From Candidatus Woesearchaeota archaeon (GTDB lineage Archaea > Nanobdellota > Nanobdellia > Woesearchaeales > ARS49), in the NCBI GenBank assembly GCA_003599055.1, contig QZIM01000002.1, positions 70,097-134,096 of the forward strand: DNA of 64,000 bases, in the 5' to 3' direction. Of the stretch, positions 21,443 through 45,735 are shown piece after piece (the stretch's first letter is position 1; the number at the start of each line of letters is the position of its first letter). A program made the translations under genes and the position numbers. The notes under the pieces were generated by a model, which saw only the letters and a program-made list of their open reading frames with translations, ran no database searches and was not told the origin of the DNA.

Positions 21443-21543
21443 AATAAAGAAGATTGCTTCAAGCAGCAAAATGACGGGAAGCATCTTCTTGTTTTTCCAA
21501 AAGACATTCCCCGATTTTGGCAGGGTTTGGGAGAGGGTTATGG
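21443..21543. repeat. 101-bp direct repeat, copy 2 (carries stop codon of giant gene)
   Basis: Second copy of 20626-20726. Here ATGA has become ATAA, which supplies the TAA stop of the 2419-aa gene. Confidence 0.7.
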
Positions 21544-24500
21544 TTGGCTCGCTTGTGCGCGCAGGTTTGTTATTGCTTCGTCAATTTCCCTGATTCTGTT
21601 TGTGATTACTATCGAAACGTGTGAAAAGACTGATCTTAGTTGTTGTTCCGTTTGCGCATCGCGTAATTGTTGGGCGACATCAGCGGTGTTTCCTGCGAAC
21701 GGTCGACTTTGTGATATGACAAGGCCTATTGTTGTTCTGAAGTTTGGTTCGGTCTGTCCGCTTGCAACAGGAGTAGTGCTGATTTCATCCAGTTGATTAA
21801 TGTGTGTGGTAAAAGTAGCCCCAACGCTGTTTATCTGCTGAATTGCTTCTGTTCGTGCAGGGTCTGCGGCGTACGCGAGTATGTTGGGGTAGGAGGGGTC
21901 TCGCCGTTGTTCGAAGTATGTTTTTTGGGCAGTAAGTTGTTGTTTGTAGTTGTCAAGTATGGTGATTGCTCTTTGTATTTTCTCAAGGCGAGATATGGTT
22001 TGAATTGATGGAGGAGGGGTGGGAGGTCTGCCGGCAGCGGCAAGTTCAAGAGATGCTTTTGCATGAGTGAGGTCTTCCATCACGAAATTCGTTGCGATGT
22101 TGTAAGATCCGACTGATTCTCGGATAATATCAATCGTTCCTGCTGTTGAGAACTCATTCTTTCGTTGGGGAAGGTTGCCTGGGTTCAACCAAACAGTAAT
22201 GGTGTCGCGTATTATGCGTGTACGTCTTGTGCTCTCGGCAACACTCGGCGCGGTCTGGTTTAATGCTTCAAGTCGGGATATGTGCTGTTCGATTACGGAC
22301 TTTTGGCGTTGGAGGACAGAAATGTATTCATCCATCTGGGTGATGGTTGTTGAGAGCAAGGGTGGACGGGTATATGCGAGAAGTTCGGTGTCACTTTTGC
22401 TCATAATCTCACTAAATCTTGCTCTGTGTATTTGTTGTTCTGCATTGAATTGGTCAATAGTGCTGATTACTCCGCTCAGTGTCTGAAGGGAGGTCGTTTG
22501 TGGTATCTGCGGCGCACTTGTCACCGGTGCTCTCTGTGCAGGACCAAGGATGCTGGTGATGAATTGTTGTGTTTTTGCTTGGAGGTCGGTTGCGAATGCT
22601 GCGGCATCAGGTGGTGCAGGGGTTATTTCGGTTCCGTTGTTTGCGCGCAAGATGACCCCGAATAGCTGGTTATTACGGTAGATGATGACTGCGTTGCGGT
22701 TAAACTCAAGGAGGGCGACGCGGTATTCGTTGTTTTCAGGGGTGCTTGCATAGATTCCTCTGCCGGCGTCGTACCTGAATTCAGTAATTTGTCCGGTGAA
22801 GTCGCGCAGGGTGATGGTGTTTGTTTGTCCGTTGTATTGCCACGCATTTGTTCCGTAAATTTGGTACACTTGTCCTGCCCGTTGTACTTGTCCTCCGAGT
22901 TGTTCGATTTGCCGTGCAGTATCAATCGTGTTGATGAGGGTTACTAATTCGCCGGTCTTTTCGCTGACTTCATCTGCGGTCGGCGCTTCGCTAAGTCCCG
23001 CTATTTGTGTGCGGATGGTGGTAAGTCTTGTTTTTGCCGTGTTTAATCGCGTTTTGTAATTGGTGAGTGTGGTGTTTGTTGTAAGCGCATTTGTCTTGTC
23101 ATTCGCATTCTGAATGTTTGGAATTGCGGTGCTGAATGCAGTGTGTGCTGTTTCAAACGGTTGTGTTTGTAATTGGTATGTTTCAAGCAGGTCATCAACA
23201 GTGCGTAGGAGCCGCAGTCGTATTTGCCTGCGTGCCGCGTCGTCTGCGGTGTCTGCGCGTGCGGCAGTGCCAAGTTCAGTGAAGGTCGTGCGCGCCTCTG
23301 CTTCTTTGCTGGCGATTGGCTGCAGGGTGTCAATGATGCGGCGAATCAGTTCGGCAACATTAGATGTTTGTGATGATTGGACTTGGCTTTGGATGCGGGG
23401 GTCTTGTTTGGTTGTGCAAATCGCGTTAAACGTGATGCTTTTGGTTACGGGTTCGTCAGTAATGGGGTCTATGCTGGTTTGTTCGGTTCTGATGCCGAAG
23501 CGGTCGGAATCTTTTGCGGTGTATGTGATGGTGAACGGTTGCGGCTGTAATTGTGCGGTTGGGTTCTCGCACGGGTTAAGGTCAGGGGTGAGTCCCCAGG
23601 AGATGAGGTATTGGCGTGTTTCTCCGGGTGCAAGGCCGATGGGTGCTTGGGGGAATTCAAGGACGATGCGGGGGATACCGACGCGTTGGTCTGTGGTTCC
23701 GGATATGGTTCCTGCGCCTGCGTACGTTATTTGTCTTTGCATAATTCCTTCGCTTGCGCCGGGGAGTTTTTGCCGTTTGCCGTTAAAGCCGTTTTCACCA
23801 ACGCCGCGCTCAGGGCTTGCATCGTAGAGTACGTAGGTTTCCCTGCGGTCGCTGTCTGCTTTGACTTCGATGATGAAGTTGAATGGTTCAGTGTGTTGTG
23901 TTCCGTCAGGTTTGAGAATGTTAACAAGGGCGATTGCGGACGCGGCGGGTTGTGCGGTTTGCGGGTTGTTCACTGAACTCCACTGGTTGATTTCTCGGTT
24001 TTGTGTTCTTCCGCTGCCGAACCAGTTTTGTGCAACGATTGGCCGCGCGCCGAAGTCTTCAAAGGACATGGTGTAATCGCCGTTTTTGAGGGTGCGAACT
24101 TCGTCTGATGAGCGCGCAACTTCCCTTCCTTGGCTGTTTTTGATGCTGTAGGAGAGGTATTTTGCTTCGGAGGGTTCTGTTTCGCTGAAGATGGTTTGGC
24201 GGACGCGTAACGTGGCAGCGACTGGTTCGTTGAGGGTGAAAACGGGTGTTGGGATATTCACGGTTGGCTGGACGGTTGCGTCAAGGAATTGGATGTTTCC
24301 TGTTTCGTCGCCAAGGACGCAGCGGAACGCAAGCGATAAGGGGTCAAAACGGCACATTGAGGGCGCGCTGCCGGGGCCGTCTGTGCTGATGGTGCACTCG
24401 TCGGTTTTTGACGTGCGGGTTTGCTTGCCGTCGTTCCACGACCAGCGAAGGTATGCCTTGTCGTAGCGGATTTGCCTATCACCGGGGGTTCCGTCCATTG

Positions 24501-27500
24501 TGATGAAGAGTTCTTTGTTTTCGATTTGCCCGTTTGCAACGTTTGTTGACAGTCCTTCCGGGTTCACCACGAGTTCTTTTGGCGTGTCGCAGTCGCATTT
24601 GCCGCGGGCAAACCCGTCGCTTTCGCGGCACTTAAAGCCGCCGCTGCATTTGAGGACGAGTTCGACGTTTTCAAGGGCTGCGCCTGCGGCGATTCCTGCG
24701 CCGAATTGGTATTGCCAGGTGACCAGGCCTGATGGTCGTGTTGCGGGGTTAAAGCCGATGAACCTGCGCGAGCAGGGGAAGAGAAGGCCGTAGCTTTCGG
24801 TGGGTACTTCTTGGATTGCAGCATCGAATGCTGCGTCAAGGTCAAGGTTCCACGTGCCGGTGAATGCGAAAAGGCAGATGGAGTGGACGAGTTTTTTCTC
24901 AACGAAGACTTGTTTGTACATACTGGTTTCGCCGTAGCGTGATTGGACTGAGCGTGAGAGTTCCGCGCCGGTTGAGGTAAGGGCGCCCATAACGTTGCCA
25001 ACGCCGCTGTATTCGAGGCGTTTGCCGCTTGGTGAGCTGAATTTTTGGGTAAAGCACGCGATTGCGTCATAGAGTAAGTCGCAGGCGTGTTGTGATACGA
25101 CTGCTTGGCAAACGCCTGATGAGCCGTCGCCCGTAAGGAGGATGGTGTTCATACAGTCTCTCACTGCGCCTAAGATGTTGCGCCAGCGTTGGAGGAATGC
25201 GATGAGTGTGGGGATGCAAATGCAGCGAAGGGAGTTGACAAGGCCGTCGCCCGGGCGGATGATGTATTCTTGGTCGGGTGTTCCGATGATTGCCATTGCC
25301 TGGTCGTAGATGTCTTGCCCGACGACCGGGCAGGTTTGGTCTGTGCCGTATCCTGCGGCGACGCAAAGGGCGTTGCGGAATCCCTGCATATCGGTGATGG
25401 TCTGTTTTTGGTAGTATTCCTCGATTTTTTCCTGGGTGAAGTAGGGTTGGATGCTGGTGCTGTCAACTTCGATTGCGTTAAGGTTTGCGTTGATGCGGTG
25501 CTGGTTGCTTGCAGGGGTGGTTCCTGCTTGGGGTGAGCGGTCGAATTCGATGGTTTCGGCGACGTAGCCCAAACGGATGTTGTATTCGCCGGTGGTCGCG
25601 GTTCCTCCTTGCGCGCTTTGCGGAATGAGGAGGAGGTAGAGTTGCTGTTCTTTTGGTGCTGCAAGGCCTGCAAGGACGCCGGTGGCTCCGCTGCCGGTAT
25701 CGCAGCACGCTTTGGCAACAGGGATGGTGTGCGGGGTTTCTTTGCCGTCGTTGTCGCAGAACCCGCCGACGGAGTTAAGGATGTTGCCGCATTCAACGCT
25801 GCCTTTGTTGGGGCCAAGGCTGATGCCTCCGGGCACGTTTGCTTTCTCTGCAGACAAACACGTGCTTTCTTCGATTTCGTTGAACGTGTCAAGTCCGAAT
25901 GCGGAAACGCCGCACGCAGAGCTCCATTCTTTCATATAGGCAAACCCGCAGCATTCAGGTGCGGCGGGGTGGAGGTCGTCGCAGTTGACTTTGCCTGAGG
26001 ATTGTGCGGAGCTTTCAAAGGGGTATGGTGCGCTGTCTGTTTGGTGGTCGCGCCATTTGAGGTAGATGTCTCGTACTTGGTTGTAGGTGAAGAAGAGTCT
26101 TGGCGGCTGTCGCAGGCGTGTTTGCTGCTGTTGTGCTGCTTGTGTTTGTCCTGCTTTTTTGATGAGTGCTGCGCAGTCAGAGCCTATCATCACTGACTCT
26201 CCTTCCTTGTAATACGTATCGCCGGTGTATTTTGCTTTTGCCGCATCGCTTGTGAGCGTGACCGGCGTGAGTCTTTGCGGTGCGTGTTGTCTCAGATAGT
26301 ATTGCAGTGATGGCGCGGAGGGGCACATGACGCGGTCGCATACCTGTCGATAGGTTTGGTCAACGAATGCGCGCCTGCGTTTTGCATCGGAACATTCATT
26401 GCAGTTTCCTTTTGCTTCGTCTTGGTCTGTTCCGCTGTATTCTTCGTTGCACGCGCCGATTGCGGCAACGTTCGGGTCGAATTTGCCTTCATCGTCAAGC
26501 GATGAGAGTACGGAATCAAACTCGCACTGGTATTTTTCGATAAAGATGGGGATGAGCGAGACTCCTTGTCCTGCAAGGCAGGTGTAGAACAAATACTTCC
26601 CGATGGTTTGGATGGGCTTAAGGACAGTGTCGATTCCTTCGATGATGCTGGTGAGAAGTTCAGAGGTGGTTTGAAGCAGTCCTTTTGGGATGTAGCGGGG
26701 AGGTATTGGGATGTCGATAGGCAGTTCAATGGAAACACACGTTCGTTGGAACTGTGTTGTTGTCTGTTCTGTTTCCTGTGTGCGGCGAACGAGCGGGTCG
26801 GTGCTGAGCGGTCCGACGGTTTCTTGGAACGGTATTTCAAGTTCGAAGAAGAGTTTCATGCAGCCAAAGCCGGGGACAAGGCAGTCTTTGAGGCGGTGTT
26901 TTGCGATTACTTCGCGCTTGGCGAACGTGGTGGCGTTGCTTGGCTCTTTTTCTTCCGCAAGTTCGGGCAGTTGTTGCCAGGGGTTGTCAATTGGCCTGAA
27001 GGTGAATTGCAGATAGCCGGTTCCTTCAGGGGTGCTTCCCCGTCCTGTTGACCGGACGCCGAGCGGGCGTTGGTTGTATGCGACAAGAGTATTATCATAA
27101 TCCTTTCGCGCTTCAGGGCCAAGTTCAAGCGGCAGTATTTTGATTTGGTTGCGGTTGATGGTCGCGCTTTGCCCGCCTTGGTATTTGTAGGTGAACGAGA
27201 GTCCGACTTGTTGGGCGCCTTGAATGAGTAATTGCGGGTTGAGGATTTCAGGGGTTGGCTTGCTGAGTTCGACCGCGATTTTTGTGCCGCTGCCGCAGAG
27301 CTGGTAGTCTATTTCTTCTTCCGAAGTTTGCGTGGTGAATCCGACGGCGTCGCTTGCGTCAAGGCGGATTTTGTTGCCCCAAACGATTTGTCCGACTGCG
27401 CGGGTTGCGTTCTTTTGGAGGGAGGTGCTGCGTTCAAGTTTGATGGGAATGCTGAACGTTCCGTCGTCTGCGGTAAGGACGGTCTTTTGCGGTTTTCCGT

Positions 27501-28797
27501 TCACGATTGCGGTGACGCTTCCTTTTTCGCTGAGTTTGCCGCGGGCAACAACGTCTGATTGGTAGGTGGGGCCGAGGTTGCGCAGGTTGGTTTCAACAAA
27601 GCGCGGCGCGCCCGTGTCGTGAATGACGCGAGATTCGACGAGCGTGACGTATCCTGCCTTGTCAACTGCCTTTACTTCGACAAGGTTTTCGCCTTGTTGG
27701 AGGGGTACGGGGACGCTGCTGCGCCCGGTCGTGAGGGTGAGGTGTTGCGGTTCTTGGCCGCAGCTGAGGCGCGCGGAAGTGACGTTGTCATTGCGCGCAG
27801 TGCCTGCAGGTATGGTGGCGGTTTCAACGTCGCTGCGGTCTCCTTCAATGCAGCCCAAGCTGACCGCGCTGACTTGGTATTGGTATGACTTTCCGGGGCT
27901 GATTGAAGTGTCAACGTACTCGTTTTTGCCGGGGACTGCGATGCGAACGCCGTCGCGATAGACGGCGTATTCAAGGATGCCGGTTATCTCGTTCCACGTG
28001 AGCGTGACTTGGCCGGTTTCGATTTTGGTTGCCTGCAGGTTGCCCGGGCGAAGAGGGGGTTCTCCTTGGGGTCGTGACGTGATGGTGATGTTGACGGGTT
28101 CGCTGACCGTGATGTTTGCAATGACGGGTTGTTGTGTTGCGGTTGGCGGGATGCTGACGTTCATGCTTGCGGGAGCAGTATCAACTTCGATTACTTGCGT
28201 TTGTGTTGCGGTTTCGTTGCCAAGGGTTGCGATGAGCGTGACGTTTTGCGGCTGCGCGCGCAGTTCTATTTCGCGAAAGAGGAAGTCTCCGCGGTCGCTC
28301 ACGGTTCTGCGCAGTTCATTGCCGTTAAGGAGCAGTTGGACGGTGGCGCCGGGCCGTGTTTTGCCGCTAACTTCAAGCCGTGGTGTTTTGCTGTAGCGAG
28401 GGAGGTTCGCGCTAACGAAGAGTTTTCCTGCGTAGAACTGTTGGGTTGGGCTGTTTTTGCAGTTTCCTGATTCATCGCAGGACGTGATGCGGTAATAATA
28501 CGGTGTTCCCTGTACGGTGGGGATGGTGATGTTGTGCGCGGTGACAAGGGCGTTGTCTGTTGTGGTGTTGTCAAGCGCGAGTGTTCGCCCAAAGGCAACT
28601 CCTCCGGTTGCGGGAATGTTGGTGGTCCACGTGATGGTGGTGCTCTCTTGGTTGAAGGTAAGGGTGATGTCGCGCAGCTCAGGGGGTGTTGCAGTGCTTG
28701 TTGTTGTCGCATTGCTTGCGTTTACGTCTTGTGCGAAGGCAAAGGGGAAACTACAGAGGAGCCAAATGAGTGCGATTGTGAGGGGTTGTTTTCTCAT
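21538..28797 (-). CDS. giant secreted surface protein (2419 aa) with fibronectin type III and beta-rich repeats
   Basis: Signal peptide MRKQPLTIALIWLLCSFPFAFAQ and an uninterrupted 7.3-kb ORF. An FN3-like segment is present (LQATKIETGQVTLTWNEITGILEYAVYRDGVRIA...YQYQVSAVSLG). The C-terminal 600 aa are Q/T/A-rich and helical. Confidence 0.8.
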   Translation of the reverse strand: MRKQPLTIALIWLLCSFPFAFAQDVNASNATTTSTATPPELRDITLTFNQESTTITWTTNIPATGGVAFGRTLALDNTTTDNALVTAHNITIPTVQGTPYYYRITSCDESGNCKNSPTQQFYAGKLFVSANLPRYSKTPRLEVSGKTRPGATVQLLLNGNELRRTVSDRGDFLFREIELRAQPQNVTLIATLGNETATQTQVIEVDTAPASMNVSIPPTATQQPVIANITVSEPVNITITSRPQGEPPLRPGNLQATKIETGQVTLTWNEITGILEYAVYRDGVRIAVPGKNEYVDTSISPGKSYQYQVSAVSLGCIEGDRSDVETATIPAGTARNDNVTSARLSCGQEPQHLTLTTGRSSVPVPLQQGENLVEVKAVDKAGYVTLVESRVIHDTGAPRFVETNLRNLGPTYQSDVVARGKLSEKGSVTAIVNGKPQKTVLTADDGTFSIPIKLERSTSLQKNATRAVGQIVWGNKIRLDASDAVGFTTQTSEEEIDYQLCGSGTKIAVELSKPTPEILNPQLLIQGAQQVGLSFTYKYQGGQSATINRNQIKILPLELGPEARKDYDNTLVAYNQRPLGVRSTGRGSTPEGTGYLQFTFRPIDNPWQQLPELAEEKEPSNATTFAKREVIAKHRLKDCLVPGFGCMKLFFELEIPFQETVGPLSTDPLVRRTQETEQTTTQFQRTCVSIELPIDIPIPPRYIPKGLLQTTSELLTSIIEGIDTVLKPIQTIGKYLFYTCLAGQGVSLIPIFIEKYQCEFDSVLSSLDDEGKFDPNVAAIGACNEEYSGTDQDEAKGNCNECSDAKRRRAFVDQTYRQVCDRVMCPSAPSLQYYLRQHAPQRLTPVTLTSDAAKAKYTGDTYYKEGESVMIGSDCAALIKKAGQTQAAQQQQTRLRQPPRLFFTYNQVRDIYLKWRDHQTDSAPYPFESSAQSSGKVNCDDLHPAAPECCGFAYMKEWSSACGVSAFGLDTFNEIEESTCLSAEKANVPGGISLGPNKGSVECGNILNSVGGFCDNDGKETPHTIPVAKACCDTGSGATGVLAGLAAPKEQQLYLLLIPQSAQGGTATTGEYNIRLGYVAETIEFDRSPQAGTTPASNQHRINANLNAIEVDSTSIQPYFTQEKIEEYYQKQTITDMQGFRNALCVAAGYGTDQTCPVVGQDIYDQAMAIIGTPDQEYIIRPGDGLVNSLRCICIPTLIAFLQRWRNILGAVRDCMNTILLTGDGSSGVCQAVVSQHACDLLYDAIACFTQKFSSPSGKRLEYSGVGNVMGALTSTGAELSRSVQSRYGETSMYKQVFVEKKLVHSICLFAFTGTWNLDLDAAFDAAIQEVPTESYGLLFPCSRRFIGFNPATRPSGLVTWQYQFGAGIAAGAALENVELVLKCSGGFKCRESDGFARGKCDCDTPKELVVNPEGLSTNVANGQIENKELFITMDGTPGDRQIRYDKAYLRWSWNDGKQTRTSKTDECTISTDGPGSAPSMCRFDPLSLAFRCVLGDETGNIQFLDATVQPTVNIPTPVFTLNEPVAATLRVRQTIFSETEPSEAKYLSYSIKNSQGREVARSSDEVRTLKNGDYTMSFEDFGARPIVAQNWFGSGRTQNREINQWSSVNNPQTAQPAASAIALVNILKPDGTQHTEPFNFIIEVKADSDRRETYVLYDASPERGVGENGFNGKRQKLPGASEGIMQRQITYAGAGTISGTTDQRVGIPRIVLEFPQAPIGLAPGETRQYLISWGLTPDLNPCENPTAQLQPQPFTITYTAKDSDRFGIRTEQTSIDPITDEPVTKSITFNAICTTKQDPRIQSQVQSSQTSNVAELIRRIIDTLQPIASKEAEARTTFTELGTAARADTADDAARRQIRLRLLRTVDDLLETYQLQTQPFETAHTAFSTAIPNIQNANDKTNALTTNTTLTNYKTRLNTAKTRLTTIRTQIAGLSEAPTADEVSEKTGELVTLINTIDTARQIEQLGGQVQRAGQVYQIYGTNAWQYNGQTNTITLRDFTGQITEFRYDAGRGIYASTPENNEYRVALLEFNRNAVIIYRNNQLFGVILRANNGTEITPAPPDAAAFATDLQAKTQQFITSILGPAQRAPVTSAPQIPQTTSLQTLSGVISTIDQFNAEQQIHRARFSEIMSKSDTELLAYTRPPLLSTTITQMDEYISVLQRQKSVIEQHISRLEALNQTAPSVAESTRRTRIIRDTITVWLNPGNLPQRKNEFSTAGTIDIIRESVGSYNIATNFVMEDLTHAKASLELAAAGRPPTPPPSIQTISRLEKIQRAITILDNYKQQLTAQKTYFEQRRDPSYPNILAYAADPARTEAIQQINSVGATFTTHINQLDEISTTPVASGQTEPNFRTTIGLVISQSRPFAGNTADVAQQLRDAQTEQQLRSVFSHVSIVITNRIREIDEAITNLRAQASQP

Positions 28798-31480: not shown

Positions 31481-31503
31481 AAAAACAACTGCGTCACGCA
31501 CAG

Positions 31504-36502: not shown

Positions 36503-36808
36503 TCAGTGTGCGGGAATTATTTTGAGCCCGTCTTTTTCTTCGATGAGGATGATTTCACTTTCTTTGGTGAGGCGGTATTTTGCCGCAAGAGCCTTTGGAA
36601 TGCGAAGGCCAAGGCTCGCGCCCCAAGATGACAATTTAACGTGATATTTCTTGAGCACGCGATATTTTTCTGCAAGCGCGTGGAGTTGGGTCATATTCAG
36701 GATTTCATTGCGGCAATTCTTGCAGCGGTAGTACGTATAGGGTATGCCGTCGGGCATAGTTCCTTCGGCAGGAGTCATTTCCTCTCCGCATTCCGTGCAT
36801 TTTTTCAT
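36503..36808 (-). CDS. zinc-ribbon plus AbrB/SpoVT-domain protein (antitoxin-like)
   Basis: N-terminal CTECGEEM...CKNC zinc ribbon fused to a swapped-hairpin AbrB segment (KLSSWGASLGLRIPKALAAKYRL...IILIEEKDGLKIIP). It lies 4 nt downstream of the DUF4258 gene. Confidence 0.55.
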   Translation of the reverse strand: MKKCTECGEEMTPAEGTMPDGIPYTYYRCKNCRNEILNMTQLHALAEKYRVLKKYHVKLSSWGASLGLRIPKALAAKYRLTKESEIILIEEKDGLKIIPAH

Positions 36809-36811
36809 CGT

Positions 36812-37042
36812 TTAGTTTTCTTCTTCGATTGTTACAATCGTGAGCGTTTCTCCTTTGATTCTGCCGACGCAAATTATTGTTCTTTTTGAGCCCTTCGCAA
36901 TGAATCTAACCACTTCTTTCCCTTGATGTTCAATGCGTCCTTTGTGGATGGTTTGTTCAATGAGGTCAGGGTCTATTCCGCGCGCAAATGCCTGCAGGAT
37001 GGCGTGCCGCGTTATCTCAATTTGATATCTTTTAATATTCAT
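36812..37042 (-). CDS. DUF4258 domain protein (toxin-like)
   Basis: MNIKRYQIEITRHAILQAFARGI fits the DUF4258 N-terminal consensus. It is paired with a small DNA-binding-type partner. Confidence 0.5.
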   Translation of the reverse strand: MNIKRYQIEITRHAILQAFARGIDPDLIEQTIHKGRIEHQGKEVVRFIAKGSKRTIICVGRIKGETLTIVTIEEEN

Positions 37043-37264
37043 ACATATCACGGAGTATATAATGATTTGCTTTTATTCGCTTTAAGAACTTGTCGTCGGA
37101 GAATCGGGAATTTTTCTGGTTTTTGTTGCTGAAGTATGTGTTCTGATTAATTAATAATTTCCATATTACAAATATATAATTTATACATTTTATAAGTTAT
37201 TTTCTTTACTCTCCCGTGGTGAAAATCATAACACTTATATAGTCCAAACTACATATAACGGGGT

Positions 37265-37591
37265 ATGAGCTTAGCAGACCTTATCAAAAAGACAATGCTC
37301 GCAGCAGGACTTGTTGCAGCAATGAGCGGGTGCTACTCTGCAGCAGACCATCAAAGAAGGTTAGATGAAATGAACGCCGCTCGAAGAAACGGCTACACGC
37401 TCAGCTCTGGCCGTGCCGCAGGCACTTCAACTTCTTACGCTGATGCAAACACGACTGGTGCTCAGACGCGCCAGAATGGCTTGCACTTTACCGGTTCTCA
37501 GGGCTATATGCCGCGTGAGGATGAGGATTTTTCTGAGCAGATGTCGACGACGGATTATCGCCGGTATGGCGGTCATCGTTTGGAAAAGTAG
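37265..37591 (+). CDS. small lipoprotein
   Basis: The signal peptide ends in the lipobox LVAAMSGC, and the mature part is polar and T/S/G-rich. Confidence 0.5.
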   Translation: MSLADLIKKTMLAAGLVAAMSGCYSAADHQRRLDEMNAARRNGYTLSSGRAAGTSTSYADANTTGAQTRQNGLHFTGSQGYMPREDEDFSEQMSTTDYRRYGGHRLEK

Positions 37592-37667: not shown

Positions 37668-40379
37668 TTATCCTGTTTGGTTTTGTGGTATGACGAGTGT
37701 TGTTGGCCCGCCGGTGTAGTCTGAGAATGGCACGCAGAGTTCTCGAACGGTCCCTGAATAGAACGCGTCTCCTGAGGGGAGTCCCGGATTAAACGTTAGG
37801 CAGGCAGTATCATATTCGTTGGTGCTTTGGTTGTAGAAGTGGTTGAAGTCCGTGTCTCCTGGGTCTAACAGTCTGTCTTGCGGGTACAGCCGTACGCTTG
37901 AAAGGGCGGGAAGCCCGTTGACGCGGGTGCGTACGGGCCGAACGTAGCGTCCGATTGCAGTGCTTTGGTTGAGGTCTTCGAGTGTTAACGGTCCAAGGGA
38001 TGTTCTGTTCATTTGCGCTTGGACGCTTGCTGCGGTTGCCGCCGCAAGCGCAAGTTGGGCGCTCGCGGAGGTTCTGCGTAGTTCAACGTTGAATCTCAGC
38101 TTGTCTGACTCTAAATTGTTCGTAATGCTGTACTGCACGTGGTACAATCGGAGCGTGAGCGGTCCGAGTATTGTAGGGTCGAATGTCGGGTCGGTTAAGT
38201 CTACTCTTCGTCCGCCGACAACGCTTTGGTTTCCGAGGATGTCAATGAGTTGTTGTGCGCTGAGTCCTGCAAGAAGGATTGGTTCTGACCGTTCTGCGTT
38301 GATAACTGCGCTGTTTTTGTATTCTGCTCTGCCGGTCCTGCCGATAAGCACGTTGTCTGCTTCAAATTTGTGGATTTGTCCGCAAATGGCAGAGACAAGG
38401 CAGTTGTCTATGCCGGCAAACCCGCAGAAGCTTTGCGCAAGCCGCGCCCTGTTTTCTTCAATGAAGTCTCCGATGAATAGTGAACTGAGTTGTGCAAACC
38501 CGCTGAACTGGTCGTAGTTTCGGAAGAAGTCCCCAACGAGCCGGTCCCAGCTTGCAAGGTCGTAGTATCCTCCCCAGCTCGCACGGCGGGTGTTCAGTTG
38601 GGTTGCGTCTGCTTGTTCTTTCAAGAGCGCGGCTTCCTCTTCGCTGATTCCCTGTCGCCGAAGGTATGCTTCTGCTTCAGCATCGCCGCCTACGATTACT
38701 TTCTCTCCATCCTCATTCACTCTAAAATAATCTCCGGCCTCATCAACACCCAAAACTATTTCTCCATTTCTCCTAATCTCCGTCGTTCTTGCCAGTTCGG
38801 TATACGTTGCGGGTTTGTTTTCAAGCGCTTTGATTTCGTCTTCTTTTTCTTTGATTGCTTCTCGGTCGGGAGGTCTTGCATTTCTGAGTCGGGTTAATTC
38901 TCCTTGTTCTCGTTCAACGACTTCATTGCGGGTGACGTGGTCGACGCTGATTTCTCCGATTGCGCGGGATTGGCCGGAGGGCAATTGCCTGCCTTGTGAA
39001 TCAGTGTCCGTGAAAATCGTGGTGCTTTCCCGCCGTGGGATTTGAACCGTGACTGCATTTGTACCTGTGCCTATTCTGCGCTCTTCATTGTAGGTGGTTC
39101 TTTCCTGATAAATGGTTTCTCCGCCGGGTCCTCCTTCTTCTATAACTGTGCGCTCCCTTCGTGCATAGACGTAGCCTGCATCGGACAAGATATCATCTGG
39201 AACCACGGGATAATCTATTGTTTTTTTAACGGTGTCGGTGAAGAAAAATCCTTTCTGCTGTCTTGTAAATTCTATACGGTAATGTTCATCGCCAACTTTA
39301 GAAAATCTTGCACCGTCAGGATCTGCTGCGAGGGCTGTTGCAAGGTCGTTCATAAATGAACGGGGCAGAGCATCTCCGATAAGGTCGCCTTTTTCAACAG
39401 ATTCGGAGGTTCCGTGGAAGTCAGTTATCTCTAAATCAGCAGTCTTATCAATGTGCAGGTTTCCCTCGTCGTCCACCCACGCAGTGAGGTCTTTTAGTTC
39501 TGTATCTCTTAGCAGAGTCTGTTCTGCTTCAGTGAGTGTGCGGCCAGGGGTACGTGCTTCTGTTGAAGAGGCAGCGCCTGATCCAGAATCTGCTTCAGGT
39601 CGGCCGGTCGCCACTTCGGATGGTGTTGCGGCGGGTTCAATTTCACCTCGAAGTGCTGTGCGTATATCTTCCTGATTGGCACTGCTATCTTGGCGTCTCT
39701 GTCCTCCAACATCTCTCCACGCGGTGATTATTCGGTTATTGCTGTCTATTCTGTACTCAGTAACGGTCCCGTCATCTTCAATATACAAGACGTTTCGATT
39801 TCCACTTGAGTCAGGAGGAGTCATAAAGACTTGTTTGTCTGCAAAAGACGATTGCTGATAGGTCGAGCCTTGATAGGTGACTCTGTCGTTTTGCGCAGTC
39901 GCTCCAGGTATTCGCTCACGGTATGTTCCGGCAATATCTCGTGAAGGAGGAGAGGGGTTTACGTTTGCAGGTATGTTTGTTGTTCCTATGCTGCTGATTC
40001 CTCCTGGGCTGAGCGTGTATGGTACTGTCACTGCTATGGACGGTCCAATTCTGCTTACTTTTTGAACAATATTAATTCCTTCTGGTGGGATTTGCTGTCC
40101 AACAAAAACTCCATTTGGGTCATAAACTCTTCCGTTGGACGCTACCCGGTAATCGGTCGTTGTTCCGTATCGGATTTCGGGATTGGCTGAGGAGGATATA
40201 AATAAGATTCTGTTGCGCTCAGCGATGTGCGTATTTTGATTGTAATTGTCAATTGCCTCTCGAGAGTGTATCAGTTGGTCTCCCTCCAGTCGCAAATCTA
40301 TTTGTTGGCCTGATACTCCTAGAATACAAATGCACAGTGAAAGAATGATTGCGCTCGTGCGTGATGTTTTCAAGGTCAT
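37668..40379 (-). CDS. giant secreted protein (903 aa)
   Basis: Start placed at the internal ATG (MTLKTSRTSAIILSLCICILGVSGQQ, a signal peptide), which overlaps the stop of the upstream 1073-aa gene (ATGA). Beta-rich with no catalytic motifs. Confidence 0.65.
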   Translation of the reverse strand: MTLKTSRTSAIILSLCICILGVSGQQIDLRLEGDQLIHSREAIDNYNQNTHIAERNRILFISSSANPEIRYGTTTDYRVASNGRVYDPNGVFVGQQIPPEGINIVQKVSRIGPSIAVTVPYTLSPGGISSIGTTNIPANVNPSPPSRDIAGTYRERIPGATAQNDRVTYQGSTYQQSSFADKQVFMTPPDSSGNRNVLYIEDDGTVTEYRIDSNNRIITAWRDVGGQRRQDSSANQEDIRTALRGEIEPAATPSEVATGRPEADSGSGAASSTEARTPGRTLTEAEQTLLRDTELKDLTAWVDDEGNLHIDKTADLEITDFHGTSESVEKGDLIGDALPRSFMNDLATALAADPDGARFSKVGDEHYRIEFTRQQKGFFFTDTVKKTIDYPVVPDDILSDAGYVYARRERTVIEEGGPGGETIYQERTTYNEERRIGTGTNAVTVQIPRRESTTIFTDTDSQGRQLPSGQSRAIGEISVDHVTRNEVVEREQGELTRLRNARPPDREAIKEKEDEIKALENKPATYTELARTTEIRRNGEIVLGVDEAGDYFRVNEDGEKVIVGGDAEAEAYLRRQGISEEEAALLKEQADATQLNTRRASWGGYYDLASWDRLVGDFFRNYDQFSGFAQLSSLFIGDFIEENRARLAQSFCGFAGIDNCLVSAICGQIHKFEADNVLIGRTGRAEYKNSAVINAERSEPILLAGLSAQQLIDILGNQSVVGGRRVDLTDPTFDPTILGPLTLRLYHVQYSITNNLESDKLRFNVELRRTSASAQLALAAATAASVQAQMNRTSLGPLTLEDLNQSTAIGRYVRPVRTRVNGLPALSSVRLYPQDRLLDPGDTDFNHFYNQSTNEYDTACLTFNPGLPSGDAFYSGTVRELCVPFSDYTGGPTTLVIPQNQTG

Positions 40380-43300
40380 CCTCCCTCTCCTCCTTCTGCC
40401 GCTTTTCGTTCTTTTTCTTGTTCTTCCATATCTTCTTGGATGTCTTCCATTCGTTTGCAGTATTGTCCGGGGACGGACTTGAATAAATTCTTGGTTCTTG
40501 CCATGCTGACGGTGCTGGTGACTGCTTCGGCAACAAGGGAGATTGTCCTGAAGACTGCGCAGGCGGTGAATGCAGGGCTGGTCTCGTAGATGCTGCACAT
40601 GGGCATGCAAAGGAGGGTGAGCCCGACTGTTACGACGGCGACGGGGTTTGACAATAGTTCAGTGAGCATTCCTGCAACTCTGTTTGCGAATTGTGCAAAG
40701 GGTATTGCGGCAAAGACTTGTCCGATGACGTATTGGCAGAGGTTGTATTGGTACATTTCTTGGCAATAACTGATGGGGTATCCGCGTTCTTTAACTTCGT
40801 CGTGCAGGCAGACTGCCTTAAAGCAGTTCACCTGGCGTAATTTTTCAACGTTATACACAATGCCGGGCAGGCACAGGCAGAACACGCTCCAAACGAGTGA
40901 GTCTTTGATGCTGGGCATTCCAAGGCCGAGGACTTCTGATGCTTTGGAGCAAAGGGGGTTTATTCCTCCGCTAAAGTAGGAGGTGAATGCTTGTCCGGAG
41001 GTTTGTTCTTGTTTTCCTGTTTCCGGGTCTATTTTGGCAACTTCTTGAGGGGTCGTGATGGGCTTTCCGTCATCACCAACTTTTCCGGTCGGGGTTTGCT
41101 GTTCTTCTGTAACACTTCCTTTAACCTCTCCTCCGCAGTTGATGAAGAAGCAGAAGAGTGAGAGTGCTTCTCCGATGGATTGGAATGTTCCTTGGGTTGC
41201 GGTGTTGGTTCCGCACAGTGCTGCGTTGACGCCTGCGACGCCTGCGGCGGCGGGGGCGCCGATGCCGGTGTTGAGAAGCCCGTCGCGCATCGTGCCAAGG
41301 GCGGCGTTAATGACGGTGAGGACATTGATGAGTGAGCTGACAATGCTTTTTACCCTGCACAGCAATTCAAAATAGTACAGTGCTTTGCGCAGTGTTCCGA
41401 GCCAGTCCGCGTTGGCAAGGGCGTCGCCCATTGCGCGCTCGATTTGCTTGTCAACTTCCGCGTACATATCTTCTTGGGGTTGGTTGTAGAATTCGGCAAG
41501 GTAGGGGACTTTGATGACTTGGGGTTGTGGTGAGATGACCCCGCCGCCGGGTATTGCCCGTTTGGTGAGGATGGTCATTGGGCAGGTGACATTTACGGAG
41601 TTGAGATAGTAGTTTTTGGCCTCAAGCTTGAAAACAACAAGCGGATTGCGGCTTCCTTCCTGCACGTTCGAGGTGTAGACGTCGCTCACAACGTTTTCAA
41701 GGTCGCCGATGCATTCGGATGGGTTTTCCGGCCCGCGGATGCGGTAGGGTTCGACGTCTCTGCGTGTGCTGGTTAATTCAACTGAGCAGCTCGCGTATGG
41801 CGGAATGAGGCTTGCGGTTGCGCGGTTAATGAGTTTGGGCGTGCACGTGACGCGCGGTATCCAGTATTGCCCGCGTGTTTCGTTGTCAAGCCCAAAGACT
41901 TCAAGCGCGGCTGAAGTGTTGGCGACATTGCCTGCATCATCAGTAAACACGAATGGTATTGTTGCAAGGTAGGGTCCTGACAGTTCGATTTTGCTTTCAA
42001 ACGTGCACTCAATTGCGGAAGTGTCATTCTCAGGGACGCCGCAAATGCCGGGGACGGTTTTGCCGCCGATTTCGCTAAAGTTCGCGTACGCGTCGGTGAA
42101 GTTTGCGCTCGAGACAACGTATTGTGCGAAGTTTCCGCGAACAGCTCCGGTAATGTTTGGGTTATCTTCGCCTTTGATAATGCGTGAGCTGATGATTCGC
42201 GGAGGCGCAGGCGGCGAGTCATCGTAAACAATCGGAACTGCAGTTTCTTTTCCTGCAGTGTTGTCAAGGTCGTCTGCGGAGCCGGAAAGGACGGTGACAG
42301 TGTACCCTCCTTCAGGGGTTCCTTTGGGCGGATTAAGGGTCCACGTGCAGCGCCAAATGCTTCCTTCAGAGGGCGCGCAGTATCCTGCCTGTACAAAGTT
42401 TGGAAGGCCAAGTTCGCTTAAGTCAAGTGCGGCAAGCCTGCGGTTGATGCCGATTCCTGCGCCGCCTGAATTATCTTTTTCGTCAAACTCAAGGGTCAGC
42501 GCGGTTCCTCTGCCAAGGAGCGGTATGTTGCTGCGGAACCGTTCGGAAACAACGCGGACAAACTGCGGGCCGACGTTGTCGCTTTTGACAGAACACGAGT
42601 AGTCTTTTGCCGCGGCATTCCCAAGCTTGTCTTTTGCCGTGACGGTGATTTTGCAGATGCTTGGCTCGACAACGGGGACGTTTTGCCAGATGGCAATGTT
42701 TCCTGCAACCCGGTCGGGTGTTCGAAGCCCGCTAAGGGACGGGGCAATGGAGGACAGGTCTGCTTTTATCTCTTTGGAATCAACGCCGATTTCATCGATA
42801 ATTTCAACGGTGACGGTGGCAATGGTATCCTGTCCTTTGCGGATGTGGGTGAGCCGAACGCCCTTGCTATCAACAATGCTTGGCTCGCGGATGTCAGGAG
42901 GGGTGGAATCAATGATGATTTGTTGGCAGGAGGGCAAGCTTTCCTGGTTGACAAAGTCAGTGGCGTATGCGCAAAGGCCGCCGCTTTCCGTGAGGCGTAC
43001 GGGAATTTGGCGGTCTTTTGAGCAGATGCCGGGCTGTCCTGTTTCTTCAAGGACGGGTTTTCCATTGAGGGTGAGCGTGATTTTTTTGATTCCGCTGCAG
43101 TCTTGGGGTTGCCCGTGTGTTAAGCCGTAATCGTGTGCGGAGAGGCGGACCGCAACTTCGCCCGTGCTGTGGATGGGTGTGACATTGTAGGCGACGATTT
43201 GCGGGGGCAGCCCGTCGATGCGCAGGTTTTTGGTTTCGGACTTGACGATTTTGTCATCGTCGTTTCGCAGTTCGAGGCGGAACGTGAGCGGCTCGTACGC

Positions 43301-43597
43301 TTCAAAGCTGTCATCGGTAAATGTGCAGCGGTAATTGTTGGCATCGCCCGCCATTCGCGTGCAGTTGTCAAAGAAGGCAAAGGCGTCGCCGTAGTAAATG
43401 CGCACTTGTTCGGGTGAGATGATTGTTTCGCCGGGGATTGCGGCGATTCCTTCGGCGATGAGGGTGTCTTTGACGCGCGCGTTGCCTGATGAGCGGTCGC
43501 GTCCGGAAACGGTAATGCTGAGTTCCTGTGCAAAGGCAACCGGCATTGTCATAAGGAGGGCTGCCAAAAACACTGCGACGAATTGCAATTTTTTCAT
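40376..43597 (-). CDS. giant surface protein (1073 aa) with C-terminal Cys-rich membrane-embedded domain and acidic tail
   Basis: Signal peptide MKKLQFVAVFLAALLMTMPVAFAQE. The C-terminal 330 aa have several hydrophobic segments and more than 20 Cys, then a cytoplasmic EDMEEQEKERK tail. The start overlaps the stop of the upstream pilin-like gene. Confidence 0.75.
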   Translation of the reverse strand: MKKLQFVAVFLAALLMTMPVAFAQELSITVSGRDRSSGNARVKDTLIAEGIAAIPGETIISPEQVRIYYGDAFAFFDNCTRMAGDANNYRCTFTDDSFEAYEPLTFRLELRNDDDKIVKSETKNLRIDGLPPQIVAYNVTPIHSTGEVAVRLSAHDYGLTHGQPQDCSGIKKITLTLNGKPVLEETGQPGICSKDRQIPVRLTESGGLCAYATDFVNQESLPSCQQIIIDSTPPDIREPSIVDSKGVRLTHIRKGQDTIATVTVEIIDEIGVDSKEIKADLSSIAPSLSGLRTPDRVAGNIAIWQNVPVVEPSICKITVTAKDKLGNAAAKDYSCSVKSDNVGPQFVRVVSERFRSNIPLLGRGTALTLEFDEKDNSGGAGIGINRRLAALDLSELGLPNFVQAGYCAPSEGSIWRCTWTLNPPKGTPEGGYTVTVLSGSADDLDNTAGKETAVPIVYDDSPPAPPRIISSRIIKGEDNPNITGAVRGNFAQYVVSSANFTDAYANFSEIGGKTVPGICGVPENDTSAIECTFESKIELSGPYLATIPFVFTDDAGNVANTSAALEVFGLDNETRGQYWIPRVTCTPKLINRATASLIPPYASCSVELTSTRRDVEPYRIRGPENPSECIGDLENVVSDVYTSNVQEGSRNPLVVFKLEAKNYYLNSVNVTCPMTILTKRAIPGGGVISPQPQVIKVPYLAEFYNQPQEDMYAEVDKQIERAMGDALANADWLGTLRKALYYFELLCRVKSIVSSLINVLTVINAALGTMRDGLLNTGIGAPAAAGVAGVNAALCGTNTATQGTFQSIGEALSLFCFFINCGGEVKGSVTEEQQTPTGKVGDDGKPITTPQEVAKIDPETGKQEQTSGQAFTSYFSGGINPLCSKASEVLGLGMPSIKDSLVWSVFCLCLPGIVYNVEKLRQVNCFKAVCLHDEVKERGYPISYCQEMYQYNLCQYVIGQVFAAIPFAQFANRVAGMLTELLSNPVAVVTVGLTLLCMPMCSIYETSPAFTACAVFRTISLVAEAVTSTVSMARTKNLFKSVPGQYCKRMEDIQEDMEEQEKERKAAEGGEGG

Positions 43598-45735
43598 TTG
43601 CGTATCACCGGCCAGATGAGTGCGGGGTTGCTTTCCACGTAAAGCTGCGGCACTTTGAGCTGTTCTAAATCTTCAATGACGCGTTCTTTTTCTTCTACTT
43701 TGTCAATTGCGATGGTGAATTGCCGAAACTCTATTCCCTGTGCGCCGTGGAGTGATTCTGGGCTGAACGTGTATTCATACGTGGTTGTCCCGTAGGGGAA
43801 GGGTGTTGATTCGTTAAAGACGAGCGGTTCTTCGGGAACCTTGAAGCATTTTTCCTTGCTGCTGACCAGTTTTTTGACGGTAAAGCAGCGCTCGTCAGGG
43901 GGGATGGTGATGTCGTCGCGAAGGAGGCTCGTGATTTGGACTTCGTATCTGCCGGGAACGAGCTTGATTTCTGCGGGCTTTCCGCCCAGGATTTCTGCGA
44001 CGGCGACAAAGGGTTCTGCGCCGGGCTCTTCCTTGCGCTTGAGGAGGATGACGGTTTGTTGTTTGCTGTGAGGTCTTGAAAGGCCTGCGGCAGCTTCGTA
44101 TTTCCACGGGCTGCGCTTGTCGATTTTGGTTATTTGGTAGTTGCGGACGCTGACGTTGACCCATCGTTCGGGTTCCAGAAGTGCCTGCAGGCGCAGCGGC
44201 TCTTCACGGTGGGTGTCAAGCGCGCGGGTGGTGCTGCTGAAGTCTTTTCTTGAAAGGAGCAGTGTTCCGCCAACGCAGCGCGGGAATCGGGAGAGGAACG
44301 TGCCGTCGCGTGTTTTTCCGAGGTTGCAGACTTGGTCGCCGCAAAGGTAGGTGACGGATACGTCATCAAGCGGCCGGCGGTTTTCGCCGTTAAGGACGGT
44401 TAGCGTGATTTCGCCGGAGGTTCGTTGGTCGATGTTGCAGAAGATGCTCGGAGGGGTGTTTGCGGGTGGGGGCAGGGTGATGTTGGTGTCTGATGCGAAT
44501 CGTTTTGAGCTGCGCATATTGTGCTCGAGCATAATGTTAAAGGTGTACCCTTCGCCGCCAAGGGCGTCGGGGTCGCGGATTTCAAAGAGGACAGGGTAGC
44601 TCAAGTCGTATGCGAACTCGTAGCGGTTGAGCGTCATGGGGAGCATCGTGAAGCTCGTTGCGCTGTCTGCCGTGCACAGTTGTCCTTTGCAGTTGAGGTC
44701 AAAGTAGGGTTCCCACCAGTCAAGGTAGGCAAAGCGTGCTTCAAGGAATCTGCGGCTGTTGTTTGTCGGTATCAAAAATTGCCGGTTATACACGAGTTCG
44801 TACAGTTCAGGGTCGCGAACGTCGGGTGATTCGATGTATTCGTAATTTTTGGTGCCGAACACCTGGATGAGGGGAATATACGATGTGAGCAGTCCTTTTA
44901 ATTGTTGGAGGACTTCGTATTCGACCCAGAACACGCCTGCGTCGGGTCCGCCGAATTTGAGCCCGCGTGAGGGCGGCAAGAGGTCTTCTTCGATGCCGCT
45001 GAACGTTCCGATGACGGTGTTGGTTGCCTGTTCGAGAATTCCTGTTTGGCTTTGGTGCGTGGTGATTTCGCTTGCGAGCTCGTACATTTCGCGAAGCGGT
45101 ACAATGGTTTCGATGGCATAATCGTTCACGGAGAAGGTTTGGTCTTCGCACTGGAGTTGTAATGGGTAATTGGCGGTGGTGATGACGCTGATGTCGGCAA
45201 CACTGACGCTTGCCTCCGGCTCGTCGATTGCGCGAAGCGTGCATCCTTGGATTTCTGATGTTCCGATGAGGCATTCGCTGAGTTGTTCTTGGACGTATCG
45301 TTCGAGTTGTTCTTCAATGCTGTTTCTGCCGTCTGCTTTGCGAAGCGGGGGGCGTTTGCTTGCAAATTCACAGTCCGCAGTGCACGCATTTGGCGATTTC
45401 ATATGCCACCAGTAGGCCACGTTCGGTCCTGCGTCGGGTGCCAGTTGGACCGCGTCGCCTTCTGTTGTATAGAACGGATTGGCGCTGAGCTGGTTTTGGT
45501 CAATATAGCCGCCGGATGCGCCGAGTCTGCGAAGCCCGTCTTCTGTCGCATCAAGAAGGCAGCTGTGGATGAGGTCGCGAACGGGCTGTGCGCGCTCGGG
45601 AACTTCTGAGAGTGAGATTTGGGCAAGCTCAAGCGCCTGTTCTTGTGTCCTGCCGGTGAGGTAGAGTGCTGCGCCGATAATGAAGAGAAGACTGATTCCT
45701 ATTATTATGAAGACGGTTATCTGCCCCTTTTTCAT
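43594..45735 (-). CDS. large type-IV-pilin-like protein (class III signal peptide), 713 aa
   Basis: MKKGQITVFIIIGISLLFIIGAALYLTGRT with the conserved DLIHSCLLDATEDGLRRLGASGGY block. Paralog of the 694- and 301-aa proteins and first gene of a three-gene minus-strand operon. Confidence 0.7.
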   Translation of the reverse strand: MKKGQITVFIIIGISLLFIIGAALYLTGRTQEQALELAQISLSEVPERAQPVRDLIHSCLLDATEDGLRRLGASGGYIDQNQLSANPFYTTEGDAVQLAPDAGPNVAYWWHMKSPNACTADCEFASKRPPLRKADGRNSIEEQLERYVQEQLSECLIGTSEIQGCTLRAIDEPEASVSVADISVITTANYPLQLQCEDQTFSVNDYAIETIVPLREMYELASEITTHQSQTGILEQATNTVIGTFSGIEEDLLPPSRGLKFGGPDAGVFWVEYEVLQQLKGLLTSYIPLIQVFGTKNYEYIESPDVRDPELYELVYNRQFLIPTNNSRRFLEARFAYLDWWEPYFDLNCKGQLCTADSATSFTMLPMTLNRYEFAYDLSYPVLFEIRDPDALGGEGYTFNIMLEHNMRSSKRFASDTNITLPPPANTPPSIFCNIDQRTSGEITLTVLNGENRRPLDDVSVTYLCGDQVCNLGKTRDGTFLSRFPRCVGGTLLLSRKDFSSTTRALDTHREEPLRLQALLEPERWVNVSVRNYQITKIDKRSPWKYEAAAGLSRPHSKQQTVILLKRKEEPGAEPFVAVAEILGGKPAEIKLVPGRYEVQITSLLRDDITIPPDERCFTVKKLVSSKEKCFKVPEEPLVFNESTPFPYGTTTYEYTFSPESLHGAQGIEFRQFTIAIDKVEEKERVIEDLEQLKVPQLYVESNPALIWPVIRK

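Follow-up and report, generated by a model that had tools for sequence, protein, structure and literature searches.

The DNA considered here is a 64-kb stretch of a Candidatus Woesearchaeota genome (hereafter the window, meaning the whole stretch; coordinates of open reading frames, ORFs, are window positions). Between positions 19930 and 46679 (~26 kb) lies a single cluster of eight genes in the order F297, PIL-1 (713 aa), F1073, F903, F305, PIL-2 (694 aa), GIANT (2419 aa), and F264, in which PIL-1 and PIL-2 encode large pilin-like proteins. An earlier note on this sequence had described the region as three equivalent repeated operons, each pairing a pilin-like protein with giant secreted proteins. 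That description did not hold: units A (PIL-2 and GIANT) and C (PIL-1, F1073, and F903) are the two paralogous halves of one cluster that also includes F297, F305, and F264, because the same colinear order recurs in relatives, and unit B is a truncated insert. What is established is a conserved, translationally coupled cluster of Woesearchaeota, its products wholly extracytoplasmic or membrane-embedded, built from two paralogous modules of a KGQ-anchored 700-aa protein plus a giant secreted protein, with dedicated membrane proteins. The cluster probably encodes an undescribed cell-surface apparatus.

All eight genes are on the reverse strand. F297 (45786-46679), a bitopic membrane protein, is followed by PIL-1 (43594-45735), with a KGQ class III-like N-terminus (MKKG|QITVFIIIG), then by F1073 (40376-43597; 1073 aa), which carries a Sec signal peptide and is coupled to PIL-1 by an ATGA overlap, and by F903 (37668-40379; 903 aa), a signal-peptide protein coupled in the same manner to F1073. 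F305 (35554-36471; ~7 transmembrane (TM) segments; likely start at the ATG at 36459) separates the two modules. PIL-2 (28794-30878), the paralog of PIL-1, begins with RA|QLTIFIILG and is ATGA-coupled to GIANT (21538-28797), which has a signal peptide; the last conserved gene of the cluster is F264 (19930-20724; 6 TM), weakly F305-like. Unit B lies on the opposite, forward strand and consists of a short PIL of 301 aa (31504-32409) and a partner of 1005-1008 aa (32406-35423) with a signal peptide, a Cys-rich body, and a C-terminal cupredoxin domain. The seven ORFs of the three units (2419, 694, 301, 1008, 903, 1073, and 713 aa) were all recovered where the earlier note had placed them.

That note had also reported translational coupling within each unit. 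All four junctions do overlap, and the junction sequences at 28794-28797, 43594-43597, and 40376-40379 read ATGA, with a GGAGG upstream of the last of these (F1073/F903). The fourth junction, in unit B, had been given as a 13-nt overlap at 32397-32409, which corresponds to a GTG start and the 1008-aa product (32397-35423); it is better read as another ATGA, with an ATG at 32406 over the TGA at 32407-32409, yielding a product of 1005 aa that starts MKSFALFAIMLF. The 1005-aa protein is also the public gene call of the Joint Genome Institute (JGI). For F903, the ATG at 40379, with its signal peptide, Shine-Dalgarno-like motif, and ATGA overlap, is preferable to the public call of 787 aa (L001 7272-9635), which lacks a signal peptide.

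A scan with degenerate patterns of one genome per GTDB species yielded 210 stretches encoding relatives, from which 76 loci were analysed with 10-kb flanks; tblastn and iterative hidden Markov model (HMM) searches on the ORFs of these loci defined six families. The full order, colinear on a single strand, of F297, PIL (~720 aa), F1073 (~1050 aa), F903 (450-860 aa), F305 (~290 aa), PIL (~670 aa), and GIANT was observed in ~20 Woesearchaeota genomes and the window (loci L005, L006, L008, L010, L011, L016-L022, L026-L028, L037, L078). Reduced forms occurred across the 76 Woesearchaeota loci: distant genomes retain PIL, F1073 (with or without F903), F305, PIL, and GIANT, or minimally a PIL gene and then F1073. 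Locus L078, on an 875-kb contig, holds the whole cluster with 4-nt overlaps at the junctions, including a GIANT ortholog of 2385 aa with 39% identity over >2000 residues to the window's 2419-aa protein and, at the position equivalent to F264, an orthologous membrane protein of 276 aa (38% identity, E 2e-58). Throughout the loci a membrane protein usually precedes the PIL gene, either F297, F305, or, before PIL-1 in 13 distant loci, a third family. A large ORF with a hydrophobic N-terminus followed 84 of the 103 PIL genes that had enough downstream sequence, and the overlap was exactly 4 nt in 53 of those 84 pairs. Gene order, strand, and 4-nt overlaps are kept down to 25-30% protein identity. 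An arrangement that recurs in this manner in dozens of genomes is far beyond chance. According to the earlier note, absence of the pilin-like/giant pairing from related genomes, together with N-termini that prepilin peptidase does not process, would have reduced the locus to a collection of unrelated surface proteins; the synteny search instead found the pairing strongly conserved. The cluster as a whole is in conserved synteny with housekeeping genes, such as those for threonyl-tRNA synthetase (ThrRS), ribosomal proteins, and TruD. In a CG10 Woesearchaeota genome (L014; P0044, P0121), PIL-1 (COV18_05460) and PIL-2 (COV18_05900) are ~88 locus tags apart, and the two modules are therefore separable within a genome.

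Sequence comparison indicates that the three pilin-like proteins of the window are true paralogs. By BLASTP, the 694- and 713-aa proteins are 26% identical over ~500 aa (E 1e-35); the 301-aa protein matches the 713-aa protein only in its N-terminal part, with 40% identity over the first 77 aa (E 3e-12). A family-size search, in which the PIL profile was run exhaustively against 1.84 billion representative proteins with clusters at 50% identity, returned 8,636 members at E <= 1e-3, 5,860 at E <= 1e-10, and 1,613 at E <= 1e-30. No Pfam or NCBIfam model covers the family, as judged from the three window proteins and 24 further members. Homologs number 75 clusters for PIL-1 and 86 for PIL-2, and the organisms named for them are nearly all Candidatus Woesearchaeota or Nanoarchaeia, which bears out the possibility raised in the earlier note that the organism, a woesearchaeon, belongs to the DPANN archaea; the exceptions are one partial match labelled Nitrososphaera and one 'uncultured archaeon', and the homologs that carry names are all 'hypothetical' or 'uncharacterised'.

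The N-termini of the three window proteins are MNNRAQLTIFIILG (694 aa), MKRGQVTVFIILG (301 aa), and MKKGQITVFIIIG (713 aa). A common motif was present in 110 of 114 PIL ORFs, comprising a leader of mostly 4-6 aa, the sequence K-[KR]-[GAS]|Q-[ILV]-T-x-F-I-I-I-G, and ~20 hydrophobic residues after the leader. Among the 110, the residue before Gln is always G, A, or S and is itself preceded by K or R in 106; Gln at +1 occurs in all 110, Thr at +3 in 107, Phe at +5 in 106, Gly at +9 in 107, and Tyr at +21 in 90. The motif holds across paralogs that are elsewhere only 25-30% identical. Archaeal prepilin peptidases require G, A, or S at -1 and a charged residue at -2, and EppA of Methanococcus maripaludis also needs Gln at +1, cutting at KG|QV, KG|QI, KG|QL, and RA|QI (PMC4371748). 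The class III signal peptides proposed in the earlier note match the archaeal rule, and the PIL proteins fit the EppA-type requirement for Gln at +1 in every one of the 110 sequences. Given the invariance of Gln +1, G/A/S, and K/R and the agreement with EppA substrates, the KGQ site is likely to be a class III cleavage site.

AlphaFold2 modelling of PIL-1 from a 72-sequence alignment gave a mean predicted local distance difference test score (pLDDT) of 87.3 at full length, and a mean pLDDT of 89.8 with a predicted template-modelling score (pTM) of 0.85 for aa 1-425. The model contains a helix (aa 3-38), a low-confidence linker, an alpha/beta domain (aa 47-410), an all-beta region (aa 440-680) of transthyretin-like beta-sandwiches, and short C-terminal helices. 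The beta-sandwich similarity is of a generic kind, with higher scores for transthyretin, CnaB, and carboxypeptidase regulatory domains. In a type IV pilin a long N-terminal helix leads into a pilin-type globular domain (an alpha/beta roll in bacteria, a beta-sandwich in archaea); the PIL-1 model, though confident, gave no specific match to such a fold. A Foldseek search with the N-domain model returned no PDB match at E <= 0.001, and the family profile searched against PDB sequences returned a designed protein only. On the basis of the model, the PIL N-domain appears to be a new alpha/beta domain without a close solved relative. It contains a set of invariant or near-invariant polar residues (E141, Q143, E235, D377, S379, E404, N406, and R408).

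At their N-termini, the partners encoded downstream of the PIL genes have signal peptides of the ordinary Sec type (e.g., ...FAFA|QD and ...VAFA|QE). Pfam and NCBIfam recognise almost nothing in the seven proteins, the C-terminal cupredoxin of the unit B partner being the exception, and no pairwise BLAST similarity was detected among the large partners. F1073, a family built from ORFs of the related loci, consists of about five tandem immunoglobulin (Ig)-like domains of the Big_3_3 type, followed by a C-terminal module that has an acidic tail and is rich in Cys, nine of these residues being invariant. Big_3_3 was detected in 20 of 38 family members, and conserved Asp and Pro positions recur every ~100 aa. 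With its signal peptide and tandem Ig-like stalk domains, F1073 has the makeup of a fibrillar Ig-repeat surface protein, and it is without a clear membrane anchor. It lies directly downstream of a PIL gene in most of the 76 loci, and its length is 990-1220 aa in ~60 genomes. In F903 only the C-terminal ~350 aa are conserved in relatives. GIANT comprises an Ig/FN3-like region (aa 1-600), a Cys-rich core (aa 640-1500), a beta region, and a helical tail of ~600 aa (aa 1800-2419); its fn3 and Glucodextran_B matches are all sub-threshold. GIANT (at aa 1175-1243) and F1073 share the Cys motif DSLV.S..C.C.P..I....[KR].R.I......C, with a profile E-value of 2e-5 and an hhalign E-value of 1e-3 at a probability of only 22%, and the F1073 profile also picks up several GIANT orthologs. 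Because of this shared motif and these profile matches, the two modules look like an ancient tandem duplication, though the link is weak. Of the domains suggested for these proteins in the earlier note, cupredoxin was detected at the C-terminus of the unit B partner, fn3 and Peptidase_M64 gave sub-threshold matches, and TSP_3 gave none. Peptidase_M64, fn3, and Glucodextran_B all fell below curated Pfam thresholds and were rejected as real domains.

Unit B, with its truncated 301-aa PIL and cupredoxin-tailed partner, is a lineage-specific insertion. It occupies the interval from F305 to PIL-2 on the opposite strand, it has no syntenic counterpart in relatives, and its partner is unrelated to F1073 or GIANT; sequence comparison led us to reject both this protein (B_1008) and F903 as paralogs of F1073. 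Short PIL genes (247-381 aa) followed by large signal-peptide proteins were found at other positions in L030, L039, L043, and L061. In L003 (12142-15696), an F1073 ortholog of 1184 aa has gained a C-terminal cupredoxin that is 42% identical to that of unit B; the cupredoxin module has therefore been shuffled among the surface proteins of this group.

Of the three membrane proteins of the cluster, F297 is predicted to have a helical cytoplasmic N-terminus, one TM segment (aa 76-94), and an Ig-like ectodomain; its Big_9 match is sub-threshold, and its 27 family members lie directly upstream of PIL-1 in relatives. F305 lies directly upstream of PIL-2 in relatives and has no Pfam or PDB relative; its conserved residues are few (D80, W159, W182, P253, W290, R292, and Y294). 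An A24 prepilin peptidase, a polytopic membrane protein with two catalytic Asp residues of which the second belongs to a GxGD/GxHyD motif, was considered for F305 and F264; it was rejected as an identity for F305, with one conserved Asp (D80), no paired-Asp/GxGD arrangement, and no Peptidase_A24 match in 29 members; a TadC-like platform protein was likewise rejected, with no T2SSF match in those members. F264 matches the F305 profile in hhalign at E 3.5e-4. The Ig-like membrane protein of ~293 aa prompted a comparison with the arCOG01314/arCOG02884 secretion system (Makarova et al. 2015), which was discarded after no DUF1616, vWA, or MoxR component was found.

We infer from gene order, coupling, the N-terminal motif, and domain architecture that the PIL proteins are pilin-like anchors that keep giant Ig-repeat, Cys-rich partners, translated along with them, at the cell surface, a reading about which our confidence is evenly balanced. 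The proposed sequence of events is as follows: PIL would be made with a short positive leader and, at K-[KR]-[GAS]|Q, a site of the class III (prepilin) type, and would insert into the membrane via its near-invariant hydrophobic helix (Q-I-T-x-F-I-I-I-G...Y). Cleavage by a prepilin peptidase of the Epd/EppA type, with its gene at another place in the genome, would probably follow. The partner would be translated from the same mRNA through the ATGA overlap, an arrangement that would help to keep the two proteins in matching amounts, and exported by the ordinary Sec route, with no clear membrane anchor of its own. The extracellular domains of PIL would capture it. PIL itself would be a pilin-like subunit, an anchor or stalk, that stays in the membrane or is incorporated into a type IV filament at its base or tip. 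As an outcome, Ig-repeat, Cys-rich giants would be displayed on the cell and would make contact with other cells or surfaces. These steps differ in strength. Anchoring of the partners by PIL is plausible, because the genes are coupled and the partners lack a clear anchor; that the assembly serves cell contact is speculative. Host attachment, as raised in the earlier note, may plausibly be the role, and a structural component of the envelope fits the conserved lengths and housekeeping synteny about as well.

Several observations weigh against PIL proteins acting as pilin-like anchors of this kind. Neither the three window proteins nor 24 family members gave a pilin or Class_IIIsignal HMM match in Pfam or NCBIfam. 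Position +5 is Phe in 106 of 110 sequences, unlike the Glu of EppA substrates and bacterial pilins. In the closer PIL-1 family the mean majority fraction is 0.70 over residues 4-25, 0.40 in the linker, 0.50-0.58 in the globular domains, and 0.78 over aa 337-392, so that conservation of this globular core matches or exceeds that of the N-terminal helix. As the earlier note had it, no prepilin peptidase or assembly ATPase lies in the window; a Pfam search of ORFs of at least 150 aa found neither these nor a platform protein. Among the neighbouring ORFs of 250-900 aa at the 76 loci with their 10-kb flanks, a Walker A motif was present in only 10 of 228, none of them pilus-ATPase-like, in a crude screen that addressed ATPases only and did not look for platform proteins or peptidases. 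Finally, the PIL hydrophobic helix differs from that of the small KGQ proteins of close relatives, which would be the major pilins. In favour of the pilin-like reading, close relatives do encode such pilin-sized proteins, one or two KGQ proteins of 134-288 aa at 2-3 kb upstream of the cluster. The window has no homologs of these small KGQ genes. Linkage between pilin genes and their machinery is often lacking in archaea (PMC4371748). The machinery is present in the group, as DPANN archaea are reported to have type IV filament loci of the Epd-like 'system 1' kind (preprint 10.64898/2026.04.22.720090), and thousands of large binding proteins with class III signals are described as 'functionalising' type IV filaments (preprint 10.64898/2026.04.22.720090). 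A second class of small pilin-like protein, with a KKG|(A)LELS site, was observed ~5-7 kb upstream in L019 (2800-3432 and 5306-5905), L020, L023, L027, L028, and L037; the two class III-like signal types in these relatives are reminiscent of the FlaK/EppA split in Methanococcus.

The main rival explanation is that the cluster builds an envelope scaffold, a core lattice functionally comparable to the two-component SlaA/SlaB S-layer of Sulfolobales, in which the PIL proteins are unpolymerised membrane stalks, the giants form an outer canopy, the PIL N-terminal helix is a plain anchor, cleaved or not, and the membrane proteins of the cluster help assembly. Conservation across the order and the synteny with ThrRS, ribosomal proteins, and TruD would suit such a role, as would the absence of a pilus-type ATPase near the cluster in the Walker A screen and the dedicated polytopic membrane proteins embedded in it. 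The lengths of F1073 and GIANT, moreover, are tightly kept, a feature more characteristic of structural proteins than of adhesins, which evolve rapidly. A plain anchor, however, gives no reason for invariant Gln +1, G/A/S, and K/R across 110 divergent sequences. The resemblance to SlaB is also limited, for SlaB is anchored C-terminally and PIL N-terminally, without sequence similarity, and the beta-sandwich match is the generic one noted above. The modules of L014, separated as they are, need not form one lattice. On balance we consider a scaffold possible but unlikely. We are similarly doubtful, and lean somewhat further from acceptance, of a Woesearchaeales-specific, previously unrecognised surface organelle in which the invariant N-terminal helices of the PIL paralogs bundle into a short stalk that is embedded in the membrane and carries the giants, F305, F264, and F297 assist, and cell-cell contact with hosts is made without the standard pilus machinery.

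The conservation within PIL itself could be taken in another way: the most conserved stretch falls in the globular N-domain (aa 337-392), the invariant and near-invariant polar residues are in that domain, and a chaperone and its substrate could be expected to show the tight translational coupling seen between PIL and a Cys-rich partner. PIL might then be a membrane-tethered enzyme or chaperone for the adjacent giant and not a structural subunit, acting in its folding, disulfide formation, processing, or attachment. The partners of the short PIL proteins and F903 are neither Cys-rich nor interrelated, however, a beta-sandwich stack of ~300 aa is more typical of a stalk or spacer, and the invariant class III-like site would be left unexplained; we therefore judge a maturation factor improbable. 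The null explanation entertained in the earlier note was that there is no system at all, only unrelated neighbouring surface proteins with ordinary signal anchors at their N-termini. The genes have no annotated domain in common, and the unit B partner is unrelated to the other giants, both of which would be expected of such a collection. Yet order, strand, and 4-nt overlaps are kept in dozens of genomes down to 25-30% identity, the PIL proteins are paralogous, and a specific Cys motif is common to GIANT and F1073. Because the synteny is conserved, we treat this null as excluded and leave it only a negligible probability.

Known systems resemble the cluster in part. The Epd, or 'system 1' (clade 1), pili of M. 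maripaludis, EpdA-E, have the same signature as PIL, with K/R, G/A, and Gln at +1 (KGQV, KGQI, RAQI); the system is reported in DPANN archaea (preprint 10.64898/2026.04.22.720090), and clade-1 loci also hold large adhesin-like proteins and extra membrane proteins (PMC4371748, PMC4858521, preprint 10.64898/2026.04.22.720090). Epd pilins are small, however, and EppA substrates have Glu at +5, whereas PIL proteins are 620-870 aa with Phe at +5. Unlike Epd loci, the window encodes no EppA, ATPase, or TadC-type platform protein, and no pilus-type ATPase was found nearby in relatives. The PilY1/DUF2341 adhesin domain of archaeal clade-1 pili was not found either, as Pfam gave no DUF2341 match in the seven window proteins or 38 F1073 members. 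The modular pilins PilB and PilC of Streptococcus sanguinis (PMC8179133, PMC9934059) similarly join a class III N-terminus to large adhesive modules; they differ in having a recognisable pilin module, in lying within pilus loci, and in lacking a co-translated giant partner. Bindosome proteins are large non-pilin proteins with a prepilin-type N-terminus that act at the cell surface although they are not classic pilus subunits, and their genes are often unlinked from filament machinery (preprint 10.64898/2026.04.22.720090; PMC4858521). They carry solute-binding domains and are encoded beside ABC (ATP-binding cassette) transporters, whereas PIL has alpha/beta and beta-sandwich domains and is encoded beside giant Ig/Cys-rich proteins.

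In the SlaA/SlaB pair of Sulfolobales, a smaller anchored beta-sandwich protein is paired with a much larger anchorless partner, as in each PIL module. SlaB is anchored by a C-terminal TM helix; the PIL anchor is N-terminal and class III-like, there is no sequence homology, the beta-sandwich similarity is generic, and the PIL cluster consists of two paralogous pairs with polytopic membrane proteins. The pseudopilus tip of type II secretion systems (T2SS), GspK-GspI-GspJ, gave a weak, non-specific match; no other T2SS components were present, and the organism is a single-membrane archaeon. Large proteins with prepilin-type N-termini are thus already known, in the form of bindosome proteins, modular pilins, and large Haloferax 'pilins'. 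We came across no account of this cluster or family in our literature searches, and the PIL family, its pairing with giants, the cluster architecture, and the restriction to Woesearchaeota appear to be undescribed in the literature searched.

Few uncultured DPANN archaea are as widespread as Woesearchaeota, and the cluster may bear on how they contact hosts or build their envelope. With a genome of ~1 Mb assumed, a ~26-kb cluster would take up a few percent of it. If the KGQ sites are true prepilin signals, the idea of functionalised type IV filaments extends to 700-aa anchors carrying partners of 1000-2400 aa. The cluster gives concrete targets for work on DPANN-host attachment.

Small genes are interspersed with the conserved ones. 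As described in the earlier note, small Cys-rich and membrane proteins sit between the units: besides the 7-TM protein F305, these are a small membrane or secreted protein with nine cysteines and one hydrophobic segment (30977-31501, reverse strand), for which no homolog was found in related loci, and a small lipoprotein-like ORF (37265-37591). Not mentioned there was a toxin-antitoxin pair on the reverse strand (36503-37051; DUF4258-like plus zinc-ribbon/MazE-like), identified from precomputed Pfam matches and the translation; it is an insert outside the conserved cluster and is absent from the equivalent position in relatives. A VapBC-type toxin-antitoxin insert (20721-21358, reverse strand), composed of an AbrB-like antitoxin (21116-21358) and a PIN toxin (20721-21188), lies between GIANT and F264. 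The same junction in L078 (19305-20265) holds a different insert, taken as another toxin-antitoxin type, with an NTP_transf_2 nucleotidyltransferase gene and an unannotated 143-aa gene. Cluster junctions with toxin-antitoxin pairs look like recurrent insertion spots.

The remainder of the window is occupied by housekeeping genes, including those for Dus, a NOG1-type GTPase, TruD, a class II tRNA synthetase, and RimK. A 16-kb metagenome contig from JGI matches the window. Many GTDB representative records with the cluster (L002, L005-L007, L009, L010, and others) are titled 'uncultured Methanosarcinales archaeon', which is probably a labelling artefact of the submitting pipeline. Strand asymmetry in the window is strong and independent of gene strand; nearly all 2-kb bins of the 64 kb combine a positive GC skew with a negative AT skew, and cumulative GC skew climbs steadily to 5.8. 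Three proteins outside the cluster, encoded at 917-1267 (reverse strand), 11411-12340, and 12337-13980 (both forward strand), have lipobox-like N-termini (...LxAC) and a proline-rich linker (ELPPSPPxPG), which suggests a lipoprotein-type surface family in this archaeon; the protein at 917-1267 has a cupredoxin-like domain, and this is related to the C-terminal end of the unit B partner. The only other KGQ ORF in the window, unrelated to the small KGQ genes of relatives and without a homolog in the related loci, encodes 122 aa at 62807-63175 (reverse strand). Its product starts in class III-like fashion with KRG|Q (VKRGQTTATLLIVLTVALLSIALV) and is Cys-rich towards the C-terminus. The ORF overlaps two others and could be either a small pilin-like gene or a spurious ORF.

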